From Thermoproteota archaeon (lineage in GTDB: Archaea; Asgardarchaeota; Jordiarchaeia; Jordiarchaeales; Freyrarchaeaceae), in the NCBI GenBank assembly GCA_029258835.1, contig JAPDJY010000053.1, forward strand, positions 1-64,000: 64,000 nucleotides of DNA. The letters run 5' to 3'. Both the position numbers and the translations under genes were made by a program. Positions 38,936 to 45,692 of this stretch are shown in pieces; the stretch's first letter is position 1; each line of letters starts with the position of its first letter. The notes below the pieces were generated by a model, which was not told the DNA's origin, ran no database searches, and saw nothing but the letters and a program-made list of their open reading frames with translations.

Positions 38936-39437
38936 CTCCCACCTGTTTACTTAAAACATCTAGGAGGACCTTTTCAAGGATGGTTACGAGTGCTTCAAGA
39001 GACTCTTCAACTTCAGGGGATAACTTCTCACCGAGGGCGCTCTTAGGCTGAACACCTACAAATATTACGTAGGCGTTAACCGTCTCCTGTAGGTACCTTG
39101 CAACCATAGAGAGAGGGGTGTGATGAGTTGAAAATGTTACTCCTCCTAAACTTGAGATGTCTGATGTTACCACCACGTCCCCGGGGCTACCGTTGAACTG
39201 GGCTGCATCCACGAAGACTACGTGGCTGGGTTCAAAACGCCTTAAAACACCTGTAAAGTTTTCAGGCATGGTTCCTGCTTCCACCACCAGAACGTTGGCA
39301 AGTTTTAAGCGTTTAAGCCTTCTGGCAACTTCAAGCCCCACCCGGTCGTCACCCTTGAGCTCGCTTCCCACGCCTACAATAGCCACCTTGACCGCGCCGT
39401 CCAACAGCTTCTTGAGAGCCTTTATCAAGCCTAACAC
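38913..39437 (-). CDS. hycI: Hydrogenase maturation peptidase (HycI-like)
   Basis: GVGSELKGDDRVG, GTMPEN, VDAA, STHHTPL, GVQP. Confidence 0.85.
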   Translation of the reverse strand: MLGLIKALKKLLDGAVKVAIVGVGSELKGDDRVGLEVARRLKRLKLANVLVVEAGTMPENFTGVLRRFEPSHVVFVDAAQFNGSPGDVVVTSDISSLGGVTFSTHHTPLSMVARYLQETVNAYVIFVGVQPKSALGEKLSPEVEESLEALVTILEKVLLDVLSKQVGDVQVGEG

Positions 39438-39501
39438 CCATAACTCCTTAACAAAGGAAACTTTAAAACCGTTTTTAACAAAGCTGATGACGGTGGCAGA
39501 A

Positions 39502-40083
39502 ATGGAGGAGAAAACAGAGGGAGAAAGTAGGGTTCAAGAGGAACTTAGAGAAGGAGAGGAAGAGGAGAAGGTTACCGGACTCTTAGTTGACGGCGATGTT
39601 GTGATCAACGAGAAAGACGCCGAGAAAATACATGGGAAAGGCTACGGAGAGTACGAGGAAGACGGGAAACTTCACCTAGCACCCGTAGAAGCACTCCTCC
39701 TAGCAGAAAGGGGGAGACTCGTGGTGCTGGATAGTGAAGGCAGGGAGCTCACATTTAAAGAATTAGCGAAGACCTTCACCCGGAAAGACCCTAAACTATG
39801 GACGCGGTACTTGGTTTACAGGGACCTGAGAAGCAGAGGGTATGTTGTTAAGCAAGGGTTCGGAGGGGGAATAGACTTCAGAGTTTACCCTAGAGGAAGT
39901 AAGGTCGGAGAGGAAGCTGCGAAAACGCTGATATACATAGTCACCGAGGGAAAACCGATAAACCTTAAGGAGCTAGACAGAGTAACCAAGCTCGCAGTAA
40001 GCATGAGGAAGAAGCTCACAATGGCGCTGATAAACAGGCAGGGTGACGTTGTATACTACAACGTGCTACAGATGACGTTTTAA
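39502..40083 (+). CDS. endA: tRNA-splicing endonuclease subunit (probably the structural/beta type)
   Basis: LAPVEALLL, YLVYRDLRSRGYVVK, DFRVY, RKKL; the expected catalytic His is not seen. ORF-track start 39157 overlaps hycI. Confidence 0.88.
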   Translation: MEEKTEGESRVQEELREGEEEEKVTGLLVDGDVVINEKDAEKIHGKGYGEYEEDGKLHLAPVEALLLAERGRLVVLDSEGRELTFKELAKTFTRKDPKLWTRYLVYRDLRSRGYVVKQGFGGGIDFRVYPRGSKVGEEAAKTLIYIVTEGKPINLKELDRVTKLAVSMRKKLTMALINRQGDVVYYNVLQMTF

Positions 40084-40409: not shown

Positions 40410-41282
40410 TTAGAAAAGTTTTTCCTCGAGGAATGGGCGTACGCTCGTCCGGTGGAAGGCTAAACCAAGCTCCTTATAGGTGAAGCCCAAGGCCAACCCT
40501 AACATTTCAGTATAGTAGAATATGGGAAGGGCGAAATCGTATCCTTTCCTTTTCAGCTCCAGTTGGCCGAAGTCATACTGCATGAAGCAGAATGGGCAGG
40601 CAACCACCATGCAGTCAGCTCCGGCTTTCGTAGCCGACTCAAGCTTCAACTTTATGTACGGGTAGGACTTAGCTCTGTCAATGTTGTTCATGGCTGCACC
40701 ACAGCACAAGTCCTTGTAATTATAGTTTAAACTTTTAGGGCCTAGGGCTTCGACGAGTACATCTAGTTTTCGGGGGTTTTCAGGATCGTCGAAGCCGAGG
40801 ACCTCACTCGGCCTCAAAAGATGGCACCCGTAGTGGACTGCCACGTTGGCCTCTAAAGGATTCACTATGAGGCTTTCTATCCTGCGTGGGCCAACCCTGT
40901 ACAGGGCCTCAACTATGTGGAGAACGTCGATGTCGCCCCTGAACTCCCTGTCGATGCGCTTTAACGCCTCGTTCACTTCCTCCATGAGGGCTGGGTCTCG
41001 CAACAGAATTTCTCTAGCTGTTTTTAAAGTTTCAAAGCAACCACTGCAGAGAGTTAGAATGTCCTTTCCTTCCTCTTCGGCCAGCGCTAAGTTTCTAGCA
41101 GCTAGGTAGAGCCAAGCCTTAAAACTGACCCCCTGAACACCAATCGGATCCGGACAGCAGCTTGCCCCCTCAAGAGGCTCGTATTGGATACCTAGGGCTT
41201 CGAGAACCATTCTTGAGGAGGCCTCGATGAAAGGAAGGCGGAAAGGGATGAGACATCCTAGAAATAGGGAGTAGTCATTCAC
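40410..41282 (-). CDS. hdrB: Heterodisulfide reductase subunit B
   Basis: FLGC, SCCP, CSGC, HYGCH, CCG, CPFC..QYD. Confidence 0.92.
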   Translation of the reverse strand: MNDYSLFLGCLIPFRLPFIEASSRMVLEALGIQYEPLEGASCCPDPIGVQGVSFKAWLYLAARNLALAEEEGKDILTLCSGCFETLKTAREILLRDPALMEEVNEALKRIDREFRGDIDVLHIVEALYRVGPRRIESLIVNPLEANVAVHYGCHLLRPSEVLGFDDPENPRKLDVLVEALGPKSLNYNYKDLCCGAAMNNIDRAKSYPYIKLKLESATKAGADCMVVACPFCFMQYDFGQLELKRKGYDFALPIFYYTEMLGLALGFTYKELGLAFHRTSVRPFLEEKLF

Positions 41283-41791
41283 CCTTCACGTTCCCCCCCG
41301 AGCACGTTTACGAACTCTTTAAGCAAGGCTCTAACTTCATCTACATTGACGGAGGGGGGAGGAGGGAGAGATAGTGAAGCCCTTCTCTTCTCCACCGCTG
41401 AGGAAAGGCTTAACGTCCTGCCCGTCTTAAATATCTGCTTCACCTCTTCGACCACTCCCTCAGGGACGTCCCCCCGCTCCACAGCCAAGTTCTTAAAGAA
41501 CGTGATAAGGTAGGATACCTTAACGTTCATCGGGCATGCTTCCAAGCATGAGTGGCAGCTAAGACAGGACCAGACTCCGTCCTTAAACACGACCTCGTCT
41601 TCCAAGCCGAGGAGAGCGTCGCAGACTATACGTCTAGGACTAAAGCTTTCAACTACACGTGCCACCGGACACTTACTAGAGCAAAGCGAACACTGCATAC
41701 AGTACTTAAGGGAGACACCTCCCTCAGGGAAACAGGAGACGCGATGGCGAAAGGAGCTAATAGACTGCAGCTTCAAAGATGCCACCTCCAA
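41279..41791 (-). CDS. hdrC: Heterodisulfide reductase subunit C
   Basis: CMQCSLCSSKCP and WSCLSCHSCLEACP; overlaps the hdrB start. Confidence 0.9.
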   Translation of the reverse strand: MEVASLKLQSISSFRHRVSCFPEGGVSLKYCMQCSLCSSKCPVARVVESFSPRRIVCDALLGLEDEVVFKDGVWSCLSCHSCLEACPMNVKVSYLITFFKNLAVERGDVPEGVVEEVKQIFKTGRTLSLSSAVEKRRASLSLPPPPSVNVDEVRALLKEFVNVLGGEREG

Positions 41792-41948: not shown

Positions 41949-42362
41949 ATGGTGATAGAAAGAACAGCCGAAGTAAGCCAAAAAGCCGTGGAAAGGATAA
42001 ACAAACTTCTCAAAGAAGAAAACTACCCGGGAAACATAGACATACTGCTAATAGACCGGTTTGGAAACCTAGTAGCTCAAAGGATTAGGTACTCAGACAT
42101 AGAGGAAGCCATGGAAAGCACATTTACGCTAATAGCAAGCTGCAACACAATATCGAAAACCTTTGCTCAAGGCGATGCTACTGAATGCATCATACGCGGG
42201 GAGAAAGGGTACATAATAGCAGTTGAGGTAGAGCCAACTATCTTGGTAGCTGCGGGAATACCGGATAGGCAACTAGGCATAATGCTTCAAAGACTAAGAA
42301 GCACTGCTAAGAAGATAAAGAAAATAATAGAGGAAGACGCAATGGAAAAAGTTACCGTGTAA
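41949..42362 (+). CDS. Roadblock/LC7 domain protein
   Basis: LLIDRFGNLVA, IIRGEKGYII and QLGIML match the roadblock fold pattern. Confidence 0.75.
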   Translation: MVIERTAEVSQKAVERINKLLKEENYPGNIDILLIDRFGNLVAQRIRYSDIEEAMESTFTLIASCNTISKTFAQGDATECIIRGEKGYIIAVEVEPTILVAAGIPDRQLGIMLQRLRSTAKKIKKIIEEDAMEKVTV

Positions 42363-42610
42363 TCTAATTTAGACATTAAAAACTTGGAAGTGCAAGCTTC
42401 ACCACACACATTTTAATTCTTCCATAGCTAGATGGCAGGGCTTTCCCCCTTTATCCTTCTGCGCAGCTTCCGCCTTTCTCCTCCTCTAAATGAAACGGCT
42501 TCCTTTTCATCGCTTATCTTCTTAGTATTTCTTATTTCTAAAAAGGGAAACACTACGCAGTGATCTCCCTAGTAAATTTTAAAAGTGTGTAACGTTTTAT
42601 TTTTCTTCGA

Positions 42611-42743
42611 GGTGCCGGTAGCTCAGCCTGGGAGAGCGCAGGACTGTGGACTGGCAGGGGCAGGCAGTAAGTGGTAAAGCTGAATCCTGAGGTCGCGGGT
42701 TCGACATGGAGGTTTAGCTTCCACGAAAGTCCCGCCCGGCACC
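42611..42743 (+). tRNA. tRNA-His(GUG) with three BHB introns (42650-42669, 42671-42684, 42706-42729) and encoded G-1
   Basis: Acceptor GTGCCGG/CCGGCAC with G-1:C73, D stem GCTC/GAGC, anticodon stem CAGGA/TCCTG with GTG at 42646-42648, T stem GCGGG/CCCGC. CCA is not encoded; lies next to hisS. Confidence 0.93.
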
Positions 42744-42804: not shown

Positions 42805-44157
42805 TTGGTAGGGTTGTCCCGGCTTACGGGGGTGTTTGGGTCGGTTAAGTATAGGGTTCCACGAGGCTTCAGAGATTTCCCCCCAGAGGTAGCCATACTT
42901 AGGAAAAAAGTCATAGAGATCGTCGAGGATGTCTTTGAAAGGTTTGGTTTTGACCCGATCGAGACGCCGGTCATCGAGTATTGGGAGACACTTAAGGGAA
43001 AGTATGGTGATGAGGTTGAGTCCAAGCTACTTTACAGGTTTCAGGATCCCTGGAGCGAGGAGTGGTTGGCTTTAAGATATGATTTAACCGTTCCGCTAGC
43101 GAGGTTTGTGGCGAGCCACGCTCCCCCCCTACCCTTTAAAAGGTATCATATTGGGCGTGTTTGGAGGCATGAGAGGCCACAGAGGGGAAGGTACAGAGAG
43201 TTTTGGCAGTGTGACGCTGACATAGTAGGTTCACCTTACCCTGAAGCAGACGCGGAAGTCATCGATGTGATGTGTGAGGTAATGAAGGCCCTAAGCTATA
43301 AGCGTTTCAGGGTGAGACTTAACGACAGGAGGATGCTTAGAGGGGTCTTCGAGGAGGAACTTAGAATATCAAAGTACGGGGACGAGAAAACCCTAGAAGT
43401 TTTCAGGGCAATAGACAAGCTTGACAAGATAGGAAGAGAAGGCGTCAGGGAGGAACTCCTGAGGACAGGGTTGAAAGGAGGTGAAGTCCAAAAAATAATG
43501 GAAACGGTGGAGGTTTCAGGAGAGCCGGAGGAAACCTTACAGTTCGTTGAGGAACGGTTCGGAGGAAACGAGAACATTAAGGCAGCGCTAAGCCACCTTT
43601 CAGGCATACTTGATAACTTAACTCATAAGGGGAAGGTGACCGTGGATCTGAGCATGGTTAGGGGGCTGGACTACTATACGGGCCCCATCTTCGAAACCTA
43701 CATTGAGGAGCCAAAGATAGGGGCTCTGGCTGGGGGAGGACGCTACGATGACCTAATAGAAAGGTATGGTGGACCGAGAACGCCGTCAACAGGTGTAAGT
43801 ATTGGAATAGAGAGGGTAATAGATGCAGGGCTTGAGCTCGGAATGTTCAGCCTTAACCAAAAAACGAAAACTAAAGTTTTTGTCGTTAATATGGGATTAG
43901 AGCAGCGAGGCTACGCCCGGAAAGTAGCTGAGGAAATTAGGAAAAGCGGATTAACAGTGCAGGTAGACCTTATGAGGAGAAGCTACAGGAAGCAGCTCGA
44001 GTACTGTGACAAGAAGGGAATACCATACTTAGTGTTTATAGGAGATAGGGAAACGCGAACGGAAACAGTAACTCTCTACATAAAGAGCACGGGGGAAAGA
44101 TATGAGGAAATACCCCTCCAACAGGCGGTAGAAGTCATGCTAAGGAAGAGCCGCTAG
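42805..44157 (+). CDS. hisS: Histidine--tRNA ligase
   Basis: PRGFRDF, LRYDLTVPLAR, WRHERPQRGRYREFWQCDAD, RGLDYYTG, GGGRYD. Confidence 0.97.
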   Translation: MVGLSRLTGVFGSVKYRVPRGFRDFPPEVAILRKKVIEIVEDVFERFGFDPIETPVIEYWETLKGKYGDEVESKLLYRFQDPWSEEWLALRYDLTVPLARFVASHAPPLPFKRYHIGRVWRHERPQRGRYREFWQCDADIVGSPYPEADAEVIDVMCEVMKALSYKRFRVRLNDRRMLRGVFEEELRISKYGDEKTLEVFRAIDKLDKIGREGVREELLRTGLKGGEVQKIMETVEVSGEPEETLQFVEERFGGNENIKAALSHLSGILDNLTHKGKVTVDLSMVRGLDYYTGPIFETYIEEPKIGALAGGGRYDDLIERYGGPRTPSTGVSIGIERVIDAGLELGMFSLNQKTKTKVFVVNMGLEQRGYARKVAEEIRKSGLTVQVDLMRRSYRKQLEYCDKKGIPYLVFIGDRETRTETVTLYIKSTGERYEEIPLQQAVEVMLRKSR

Positions 44158-44387: not shown

Positions 44388-45692
44388 TTGATCATGAAGA
44401 GGATGAGAGAAATGGAGGATCTAAAAGCCCTTAAAAAAGAGCTCTTCAGGTGTATTCACTGTAAGGCGTGCATGTTTTCCTACTCAGGTGAGCCAGACAA
44501 GCAAGGTATAGGCGAGTACCAAGGGATGCTCTACGAAGGCATGATTGAGGGGTGCCCTTCAGGAGCCTACAACATGCTCTGGGAAGGTTACCTGAACAGC
44601 GGTAGAATGTGGATTCTAAGGGCCATAATGGAAGGAGAACTTGAACCTAATGAGAGCGTAAGAGACCTAATATTTCCGTGTCCGACGTGTGGGAACTGTC
44701 AAGCCCAGTGCGAGAACAAGATACCAACCGTTGAGCTGATCGAGGCTGCTAGGGCGGCATGCGTCGAGGCAGGTGTTCCATTGCTACCTAAGCATGCTGC
44801 GATGGGCAAGTTCACCGAGGAGCTGAACAACCCCTACGGGGAGAAGCACGAGGAAAGAACGAAGTGGCTTGAGGGCACCGGGATCAAGACGAAGAAAGAC
44901 GCTAAGATCGCGTATTTCGTGGGTTGCACGGCTTCATACAGGCAAAAGCACGTGGCTAAGGCCACCGCTGAGCTGCTTAATAAGCTCGGTGTTGAATTTG
45001 CAGTACTTGAGGAGGAAGTATGCTGTGGCTCACCGCTCTTCAGAACTGGTCAGAGGAAGATCGCTAAGAGGGTTATGGAGGAGAACTTGAAGACTTTTAA
45101 AGACTATGACGTGTTGCTGTTCAGCTGTGCAGGATGCTACAGGACCTTCAGGGTGGACTACCCGAAGTTTACCGGGGAGAAGTTGCCATTCACACCCAAG
45201 CACACTCTAGAATACGTAGCGGAGCTACTTGACCAAGGTAAACTGGAGTTTAAGAGGGAGTTTAAGAAGAAAGTTACATGGCACGACCCTTGCCACCTGA
45301 TGAGGCACGTCGCCCTTGACTTAGAGCGTAGAGAGCTGGCTAAAAGCAGCAACTGGTTCGTGGACGAAAGAGAAATTAAAAAGAAGAAGGAAGAATGGTA
45401 CGAGCTTCCAAGAAAGATCCTCAGGGCTATTCCAGGAGTAGAGCTTGTCGAAATGTACAGGATTAAGGAGGATGCGTGGTGCTGTGGCTCAGGCGGCGGC
45501 GTGAAAGCACAATATCCAGACTTAGCCCTTTGGACAGCGTTAGAAAGGATTAAAGAGGCAGAGGCTACAGGAGCAGAGGCCATAGTGACGAGCTGCCCAT
45601 TCTGCATCAGAAACCTAGGTGACGCCGTCGCTGCGGGCGGATCAAAACTTGAAGTCTTAGAGCTACTCGAAATACTCAACGAGATTATTTAA
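44388..45692 (+). CDS. HdrD/GlpC-like Fe-S protein with CCG domains
   Basis: CIHCKAC, CPTCGNC, FVGC, CCG, CAGC, HDPCHL, CCGSGGG, CPFC. Confidence 0.9.
   Translation: MIMKRMREMEDLKALKKELFRCIHCKACMFSYSGEPDKQGIGEYQGMLYEGMIEGCPSGAYNMLWEGYLNSGRMWILRAIMEGELEPNESVRDLIFPCPTCGNCQAQCENKIPTVELIEAARAACVEAGVPLLPKHAAMGKFTEELNNPYGEKHEERTKWLEGTGIKTKKDAKIAYFVGCTASYRQKHVAKATAELLNKLGVEFAVLEEEVCCGSPLFRTGQRKIAKRVMEENLKTFKDYDVLLFSCAGCYRTFRVDYPKFTGEKLPFTPKHTLEYVAELLDQGKLEFKREFKKKVTWHDPCHLMRHVALDLERRELAKSSNWFVDEREIKKKKEEWYELPRKILRAIPGVELVEMYRIKEDAWCCGSGGGVKAQYPDLALWTALERIKEAEATGAEAIVTSCPFCIRNLGDAVAAGGSKLEVLELLEILNEII

Follow-up and report, generated by a model that had tools for sequence, protein, structure and literature searches.

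Three introns in the single tRNA-His gene of a Jordarchaeia archaeon, with a predicted one-nucleotide exon and a predicted order of removal around it

The stretch of DNA analysed here, hereafter the window (64,000 nucleotides, contig C6), comes from an assembly of 2.72 Mb in 91 contigs that is 94.7% complete. Its positions 42611-42743 on the forward strand, read from the sequence and agreeing with the earlier description, hold a gene for tRNA-His(GUG), and the organism is an archaeon of the Asgard class Jordarchaeia. The gene ends 62 nt upstream of hisS (42805-44157, forward strand), which encodes a histidyl-tRNA synthetase (HisRS) of 450 aa with the Pfam tRNA-synt_His domain (1.3e-49) and an anticodon-binding domain, and which has an A/T-rich element of its own upstream. 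About 30 nt before the first nucleotide of the tRNA, G-1, lies a TATA-like A/T-rich box, ATTTTAAAAG (42576-42585, forward strand), a putative archaeal promoter; a similar element, AAANNTTTAAAA, is present at equal distance upstream in the four orthologues of a sister genus, which likewise adjoin hisS, and the tRNA-His/hisS neighbourhood is thus conserved there. Just upstream of the tRNA gene, a protein of 137 aa with a Roadblock/LC7 domain is encoded at 41949-42362 (forward strand), and the region is flanked by heterodisulfide-reductase-like CCG and 4Fe-4S genes at 40410-41791 and 44388-45692.

The HisRS is 70-72% identical to that of MAGs named Candidatus Jordarchaeia, Jordarchaeales or Jordarchaeum, which are Asgard archaea. 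Within the Freyrarchaeaceae family, HisRS is 52-59% identical to that of MAGs labelled Thermoproteota, Korarchaeum or Altiarchaeota and merely 34-36% identical to that of the next family of the same order; this contrast suggests replacement or transfer of the hisS gene. Fragments of hisS of 202 and 224 nt, with 99-100% identity, occur in two marine-sediment metatranscriptome assemblies of one sample (window positions 43284-43604); the sample therefore seems to contain this organism or a very closely related strain, possibly in an active state. Parts of the stretch occur in 19 public runs, two of which are metatranscriptomes whose contigs cover parts of hisS alone; metatranscriptome matches of 31 nt to the D-arm region of the tRNA run on into tRNAs of other organisms. 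Neither assembly shows a spliced joint, a processing intermediate or the mature tRNA-His, a result that weighs neither for nor against splicing.

Neither ARAGORN nor the Rfam tRNA model at its gathering threshold reports any tRNA in the 64-kb window. When positions 42650-42669, 42671-42684 and 42706-42729 (hereafter introns A, B and C) are deleted in silico, ARAGORN calls a tRNA-His(gtg) of 75 nt including G-1. The four stems of the resulting cloverleaf are all completely paired (acceptor GUGCCGG:CCGGCAC, D stem GCUC:GAGC, anticodon stem CAGGA:UCCUG and T stem GCGGG:CCCGC), the anticodon loop reads CUGUGGA and the T loop UUCGACU, and U8, G18-G19, U33 and G37 are all present. The extra 5' guanosine G-1 (42611, forward strand), an identity element of tRNA-His, pairs with the discriminator C73 (42743); both are encoded in the genome and invariant in all six versions of the gene that we compared, namely that of this genome (G000), four from the sister genus in the same family (G001-G004) and one on a metagenome contig (L112). 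The terminal CCA is not encoded in the gene. These results bear out the sequence-only reading in its claims of three introns, their coordinates and motifs, an encoded G-1 and a downstream hisS, and we consider the tRNA-His assignment with three introns secure.

When the whole genome is searched by BLAST with the spliced sequence, a single match is returned, the locus at 42611-42743, in three pieces, and none of the 30 uninterrupted look-alikes of a GUG anticodon arm in the genome has a tRNA context. The locus is therefore the only one for tRNA-His in this 94.7%-complete genome.

The gene is laid out on the forward strand as follows. Exon 1 (42612-42649, tRNA positions 1-37) carries the 5' strand of the acceptor stem, the D arm and the 5' strand of the anticodon stem, and ends with C32 U33 G34 U35 G36 G37, as assigned by ARAGORN on the spliced sequence; among the genus and L112, the only variable position of this exon is 17. 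Intron A (42650-42669, 20 nt) occupies the canonical site 37/38 and is followed by A38 (42670), a predicted exon of one nucleotide that is placed by the bulge-helix-bulge (BHB) geometry of the motifs on both sides. Then come intron B (42671-42684, 14 nt, site 38/39), exon 3 (42685-42705, positions 39-59), with the 3' strand of the anticodon stem, the variable loop, the 5' strand of the T stem and the T loop as far as C59, and intron C (42706-42729, 24 nt, T-loop site 59/60). Exon 4 (42730-42743, positions 60-73) supplies U60, the 3' strands of the T and acceptor stems, and C73.

Intron C is the simplest of the three. Its strict hBHBh' motif, gcggg-UUCG-AC^A-uggaggu..gcuucca-CGAA-AG^U-cccgc, was scored by a BHB scan that takes account of a central helix of 4 bp, of 3-nt bulges whose second base precedes the cut, and of the helices on the outer and inner sides; it has a central helix of 4/4 pairs, an outer helix of 5 bp and an inner helix of 7 bp. 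A strict motif is found in 6/6 versions (central 4/4, outer 5, inner 3-7), with an inner helix that differs each time, and the central helix shows changes from U:A to U:G among the six T arms. In the alignment of these arms, 98.7% of the cells are paired, and sliding the partner by 1-3 columns lowers this figure to 38-58%; formal covariation in the six sequences is weak by the shuffle control (62/500), and the slid-partner control alone is clear. With its own independent strict motif, intron C would be removable at any time.

The insert in the anticodon loop is of a different kind. For the 35 nt between G37 and U39, the scan finds no one-step BHB excision in any of the orthologues, even when the requirements are lowered to a central helix of at least 3 pairs and an outer helix of at least 2, and the tRNA-Tyr gene of the same genome (C30:1115-1253), used as positive control, returns a clean one-step intron of 64 nt. 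Starting from no presupposed solution, we listed every succession of BHB-like excisions, three at most, after which a stem of 5 bp and a loop of 7 nt remain and GUG occupies positions 34-36. Removal of B followed by A is the best path in this genome and the sole path that is strict at both steps. When the 35-nt insert is shuffled 20,000 times, 6.3% of the products give a strict one-step solution and 0.15%, like the real sequence, a solution that is strict in two steps only. A weaker second two-step path uses the first GGCAGG repeat of intron A and takes 42666 as A38, with a central helix of 3/4 and an outer helix of 3.

The motif of intron B, cagg-CAGU-AA^G..GCUG-AA^U-ccug, has a central helix of 4/4 pairs, an outer helix of 4 bp, a 3' bulge of 3 nt and practically no inner helix, and its 5' cut falls in a hairpin loop of 10 nt in this genome and in L112, which makes it a relaxed motif. 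The 5' strand of the motif is supplied by the 3' half of intron A, positions 42661-42668 (CAGGCAGU): 42661-42664 (CAGG) pair with exon positions 42686-42689, and 42665-42668 (CAGU) pair with 42679-42682. Once B is deleted, the arm has as its minimum-free-energy fold precisely the canonical motif of intron A, cagga-CUGU-GG^A-cug..cag-GCAG-UA^A-uccug, a strict hBHBh' found in the B-less arm only (central 4/4, outer 5, inner 3). Here the same segment has other partners, for 42661-42663 pair with 42651-42653 in the inner helix, 42664-42667 (GCAG) pair with 42644-42647 (CUGU) in the central helix, and the outer helix is formed by 42685-42689 with the true stem at 42639-42643. Since each motif requires 42661-42668 and 42686-42689 with different partners, the two are mutually exclusive. 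Intron A also contains a tandem repeat, GGCAGG GGCAGG, at 42655-42666, and its 3' half (GCAGG-CAGU-AA^) resembles the exon sequence GCAGGA-CUGU-GG^; on the strength of the repeat and of this likeness, one may speculate that intron A arose by partial duplication of the 5' half of the anticodon arm.

When A is removed first in silico, B is left with UGUG facing GCUG, in which 2/4 central pairs form, and no BHB-like motif remains; removal of A before B thus looks like a dead end. The folds themselves, computed at 37 C for the arm in isolation, have energies of -9.2 kcal/mol for the state competent for excision of B, -9.3 kcal/mol for the anticodon stem combined with the central helix of A, and -10.7 kcal/mol for the minimum; as these values lie close together, both states should be populated in the precursor of this genome. 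In these models, the later motif (A) needs the earlier intron (B) to be gone, the property by which an ordered pre-tRNA with multiple introns is recognized. The sequence-only reading had called this order obligatory, and its structural premises hold, in that the motif of B is built from sequence of intron A, the motifs exclude each other and the canonical motif of A is obtained only after B is out; obligatory is nevertheless too strong a word for a structural prediction, and A may, with low probability, be cut first through a relaxed motif, which would leave a dead-end intermediate.

The same reading had presented A38 as a one-nucleotide exon, and here the outcome is divided. The BHB geometry fits, but intron B is flanked by AA at 42669-42670 and by AA at 42683-42684, such that sliding it by 1-2 nt in this genome changes neither the ligated products nor the 14-nt circle; judged by sequence only, nucleotide 38 could be A42684 (or A42683/84), with the cuts of B shifted. 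Motif geometry alone favours the placement of B at 42671-42684 in the model, and A42670 as exon 38 is the best-supported structural prediction.

Relatives lend support to this picture, in that the layout recurs in the sister genus. Across the six versions, which represent two genera, 69 of the 75 exon positions are invariant; the variable ones are position 17 of the D loop, position 59 of the T loop, the pair 28:42 (A:U to G:C in G001) and positions 26/44 (G/A to A/G in G002), and hence each exon change is either in a loop or compensatory. The introns range from 15 to 20 nt (A), 13 to 20 nt (B) and 17 to 24 nt (C), and between the genera they have little in common but a few motif bases. This contrast between conserved exons and diverging introns marks purifying selection on the exons of a functional gene whose inserts are spliced out, and is not the mark of a pseudogene. 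Pattern scans of genome and metagenome collections yielded one further variant, the nearly identical L112, whose three differences are all unpaired in both folds (a small sample) and whose intron B has one loop A fewer while keeping all paired bases.

Within the anticodon-loop insert, the element GCAG-YA^A is kept in the middle in 6/6 versions, and the inner helix of A changes in sequence while its pairing stays (CUG:CAG in G000, CC(C):GG(G) among the sister-genus orthologues). In G003 and G004, removal of B and then A is again the best path, with a central helix of 3/4 and an inner helix of 4 bp for B, and with A last and perfect, as in this genome. In G001 and G002 the central helix of B fits only when shifted by one base, which produces a 5' bulge of 4 nt, and it is poor in the required register. 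The AA...AA context that flanks B in this genome is found also in G004 and G002, and B cannot be slid in G003 (..AC^U) and G001 (..AG^U) without changing the conserved A38, there being a single A between the introns. In the sister genus, a three-way junction that combines the anticodon stem with the central and inner helices of A and a hairpin of B itself, and that displays both bulges of A, is more stable by 7-16 kcal/mol than the fold competent for excision of B, and A may be cut first there through a relaxed motif. The most coherent cases are this genome and L112, in which B has lost that hairpin and acquired a perfect motif with intron A.

The layout of introns A and B can be traced within the family only. 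In the next family of the same order (five genomes, G005-G009) no tRNA-His was found beside hisS, and the hits obtained there with the pattern at 3 mismatches are not tRNAs. In the sister genus (L082-L085), a fourth intron of 15-19 nt interrupts the D arm at position 22/23; all four species give it a 4/4 central helix, UGGG pairing with CCUG, CCCA, CUCA and CCCG, and almost no outer helix accompanies it. Since this intron is absent from G000 and L112, an intron has been gained or lost between the genera.

Four other readings of these data have to be weighed. The one with the most in its favour, unlikely as we judge it to be, accepts the same introns and the one-base exon and dispenses with a fixed order: A would be cut in the precursor by way of the three-way junction serving as a relaxed motif, and B thereafter by some non-BHB mode. 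The sister genus lends it substance, for there the junction is the minimum or near-minimum fold and the hairpin of B starts within one base of A38; in this genome too the three-way-junction fold is as stable as the one competent for B, and (alpha-beta)2-type endonucleases accept relaxed motifs (PMC6379350). Against it, once A is removed first, no orthologue retains a BHB-like motif for B with the required cuts (central 2/4 or worse), and in this genome B lacks its own hairpin yet has a perfect motif that uses sequence of intron A. Rather less credible is a nested arrangement without any one-base exon, in which B would be 42669-42682 or 42670-42683 and lie within A, and A38 would be 42684, or 42666 by the variant path. 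The three equivalent placements allowed by the AA/AA repeats, as well as the existence of the variant path, speak for such nesting; however, only with 42671-42684 do both cuts follow the second base of a bulge of 3 nt beside a 4/4 helix, and sliding B in G003 and G001 would alter nucleotide 38 from the conserved A.

That the whole insert should be a single intron of 34 nt (42650-42683 or 42651-42684) strikes us as very improbable, although ARAGORN with option -i, run after deletion of the T-loop intron only, returns tRNA-Gln(ctg) with i(35,34), and although BLAST with the mature sequence allows nucleotide 38 to be at 42650 or 42684. No one-step BHB supports such an intron in any register in any orthologue, the GCAG-YA^A element is conserved mid-insert throughout, and the tRNA-Gln version of the reading would give the orthologues differing anticodons and clashes with G-1 and C73; both versions were rejected on these grounds. 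A decaying pseudogene, with the true tRNA-His gene hidden in the unassembled 5% of the genome, is scarcely to be believed. What can be said for it is that the assembly is a draft of 91 contigs, and that a three-intron tRNA-His of Atabeyarchaeia was tagged 'possible pseudo' by tRNAscan-SE (PMC11291895, Supplementary Data 4). It is opposed by the exon conservation over two genera described above, by the conserved promoter-like element and hisS neighbourhood, and by the lack of any other candidate locus in the genome.

We consider it probable, with some reserve, that the account as a whole is correct, namely that this is a single functional tRNA-His gene with three introns, of which B and then A are removed around A38. 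The actual cut sites, their order and the ligation, as we infer them, would be the following. The three introns of the transcript would be removed by the EndA endonuclease, with subsequent joining by the RtcB ligase. Within the precursor, CAGG-CAGU from the 3' half of intron A would substitute for the anticodon stem and loop, its partners being GCUG at the 3' end of B and CCUG, bases 40-43 of the exon, and the resulting fold would expose the cut sites of B at 42670^42671 and 42684^42685. After excision of B and ligation of A38 to U39, the arm would refold and the true anticodon stem would form, with CUGU (positions 32-35) pairing with the GCAG of intron A to create the canonical 37/38 motif; A would then be excised and G37 joined to A38. 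Four cuts made at once would free A38 as a mononucleotide, which would be lost, and stepwise cutting and ligation would keep it attached to a long fragment. Because the two motifs are mutually exclusive, all four cuts cannot coincide. One may go a step further and regard the arm as a two-state folding switch in which the splicing of B creates the motif of A, and in which mutual exclusion has been selected to protect the one-nucleotide exon; this is a more tentative proposal, which we rate a little below an even chance. If it is true, no smaller exon than A38 would be processed by the archaeal protein-splicing pathway, and an essential single-copy tRNA in the closest prokaryotic relatives of eukaryotes would possess a built-in check on the order of its splicing.

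The genome encodes two EndA paralogues, both with the N and C domains of EndA. The shorter one, of 190 aa (contig C1), is closest to the chains 3p1z_B (E 4e-46) and 3ajv_B (E 1e-44) and keeps the GIDHAP motif, and one of its Lys residues aligns with residue 44 of the 3p1z_B chain. We take these chains to be the catalytic subunit of Aeropyrum pernix, and residue 44 to be the lysine of its specificity loop. The longer paralogue, of 308 aa, is encoded at 39157-40083 (forward strand), 2.5 kb upstream of tRNA-His, and matches Pfam tRNA_int_endo_N and tRNA_int_endo; it has Ala at the aligned His of GIDHAP, its N-terminal 139 residues are without a Pfam match, and PDB matches were found for the protein. 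It is probably a non-catalytic (beta-like) structural subunit of a two-subunit endonuclease. The genome thus appears to hold the two distinct paralogues, one catalytic and one structural, that distinguish the (alpha-beta)2 type, and RtcB is also present (C1:78966-80273). The specificity loop has been tied to a broad substrate range (PMC6379350), and the splicing machinery of this organism looks permissive from its sequences, in keeping with what the sequence-only reading had supposed on the evidence of the tRNA. Similarity of the 190-aa EndA, the aligned Lys and the second paralogue without the His all point to a resemblance with the crenarchaeal (alpha-beta)2 EndA (Hirata 2019, PMC6379350), from which the second paralogue departs by its N-terminal extension of 139 residues. 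Two EndA paralogues are found in 44/60 Asgard genomes (Goswami et al. 2026, 10.64898/2026.10.13.758758).

Genome-wide, ARAGORN reports 18 tRNAs, 14 of them with an intron, and the Rfam tRNA model 12. These calls are few and the majority of those by ARAGORN are intron-bearing, which indicates that most tRNA genes of this genome are hidden by multiple or non-canonical introns. The present gene fills a gap in this respect, for tRNA-His is missing from the published list of a complete genome of the class and was overlooked here by both ARAGORN and Rfam. It also offers a compact and conserved test substrate for asking how relaxed the Asgard splicing endonuclease is and whether refolding of the RNA alone sets the order, and its one-base exon, if confirmed, would mark the lower limit of exon size in enzyme-catalysed RNA splicing.

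Published work on the lineage leads one to expect crowded genes. In Atabeyarchaeia and Freyarchaeia (the latter equivalent to Jordarchaeia), 92-95% of the tRNA genes bear introns; over half contain more than one, with a maximum of four, and the sites are often non-canonical ones of the D arm or T arm (Valentin-Alvarado et al. 2024, PMC11291895). In the tRNA table for the complete Freyarchaeota genome, tRNA-His and several other specificities are missing, and the tRNA-His of Atabeyarchaeia-1 has three introns with an exon of 3 nt between the first two and is marked 'possible pseudo' (PMC11291895, Supplementary Data 4). That table lists all intron begins before all intron ends, and for the Atabeyarchaeia-1 tRNA-His the three listed introns leave 33 nt unaccounted for. 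In the intron-rich Asgard families studied by Goswami et al. (2026, 10.64898/2026.10.13.758758), tRNAscan-SE misses about 30% of the intervening sequences. Elsewhere, some archaea are described as having nested introns in which the last BHB forms only after processing of the others (summarized in PMC3728597, citing Sugahara 2008 and Tocchini-Valentini 2009). The novelty attached to the gene by the sequence-only reading was accordingly overstated, because tRNAs with multiple introns are the published norm for the lineage (PMC11291895) and a nested order is known in Crenarchaeota (PMC3728597). Knowledge is unchanged in kind, both intron-crowded tRNAs in this lineage and ordered nested introns in other archaea having been described before, and the gene, though extreme, adds no fundamentally new form of intron crowding in archaeal tRNA genes.

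The gene shares with those published for Freyarchaeia and Atabeyarchaeia its lineage, the abundance of introns, their non-canonical sites and the failure of annotation programs to see it, together with the two EndA paralogues found in most Asgard genomes. Abutting introns, one-base exons and splicing order are not discussed in PMC11291895 or 10.64898/2026.10.13.758758, nor is nesting in the latter, and the smallest exon that can be read from the table of the former is that of 3 nt in the Atabeyarchaeia tRNA-His, versus one base predicted here. The literature searched, in which the crenarchaeal work is represented by the summary in PMC3728597, contained no relevant report of a one-nucleotide exon in an archaeal tRNA. 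With the tRNAs of Crenarchaeota, Thermoproteales (Sugahara 2007/2008 and Tocchini-Valentini 2009, as represented in PMC3728597), the present gene has in common several BHB introns and an order set by structure. It differs from the nested introns of Crenarchaeota, insofar as the summary in PMC3728597 permits the comparison, in that the introns abut around one exon base, the central helices share one strand (GCAGU) and the host is an Asgard archaeon. A further parallel is provided by the alga Cyanidioschyzon merolae (Soma 2013, PMC3728597), in which BHB introns are likewise removed in order and the 37/38 intron comes last; the algal motifs, however, fold independently and their order follows from stability, whereas the motifs described here are mutually exclusive.
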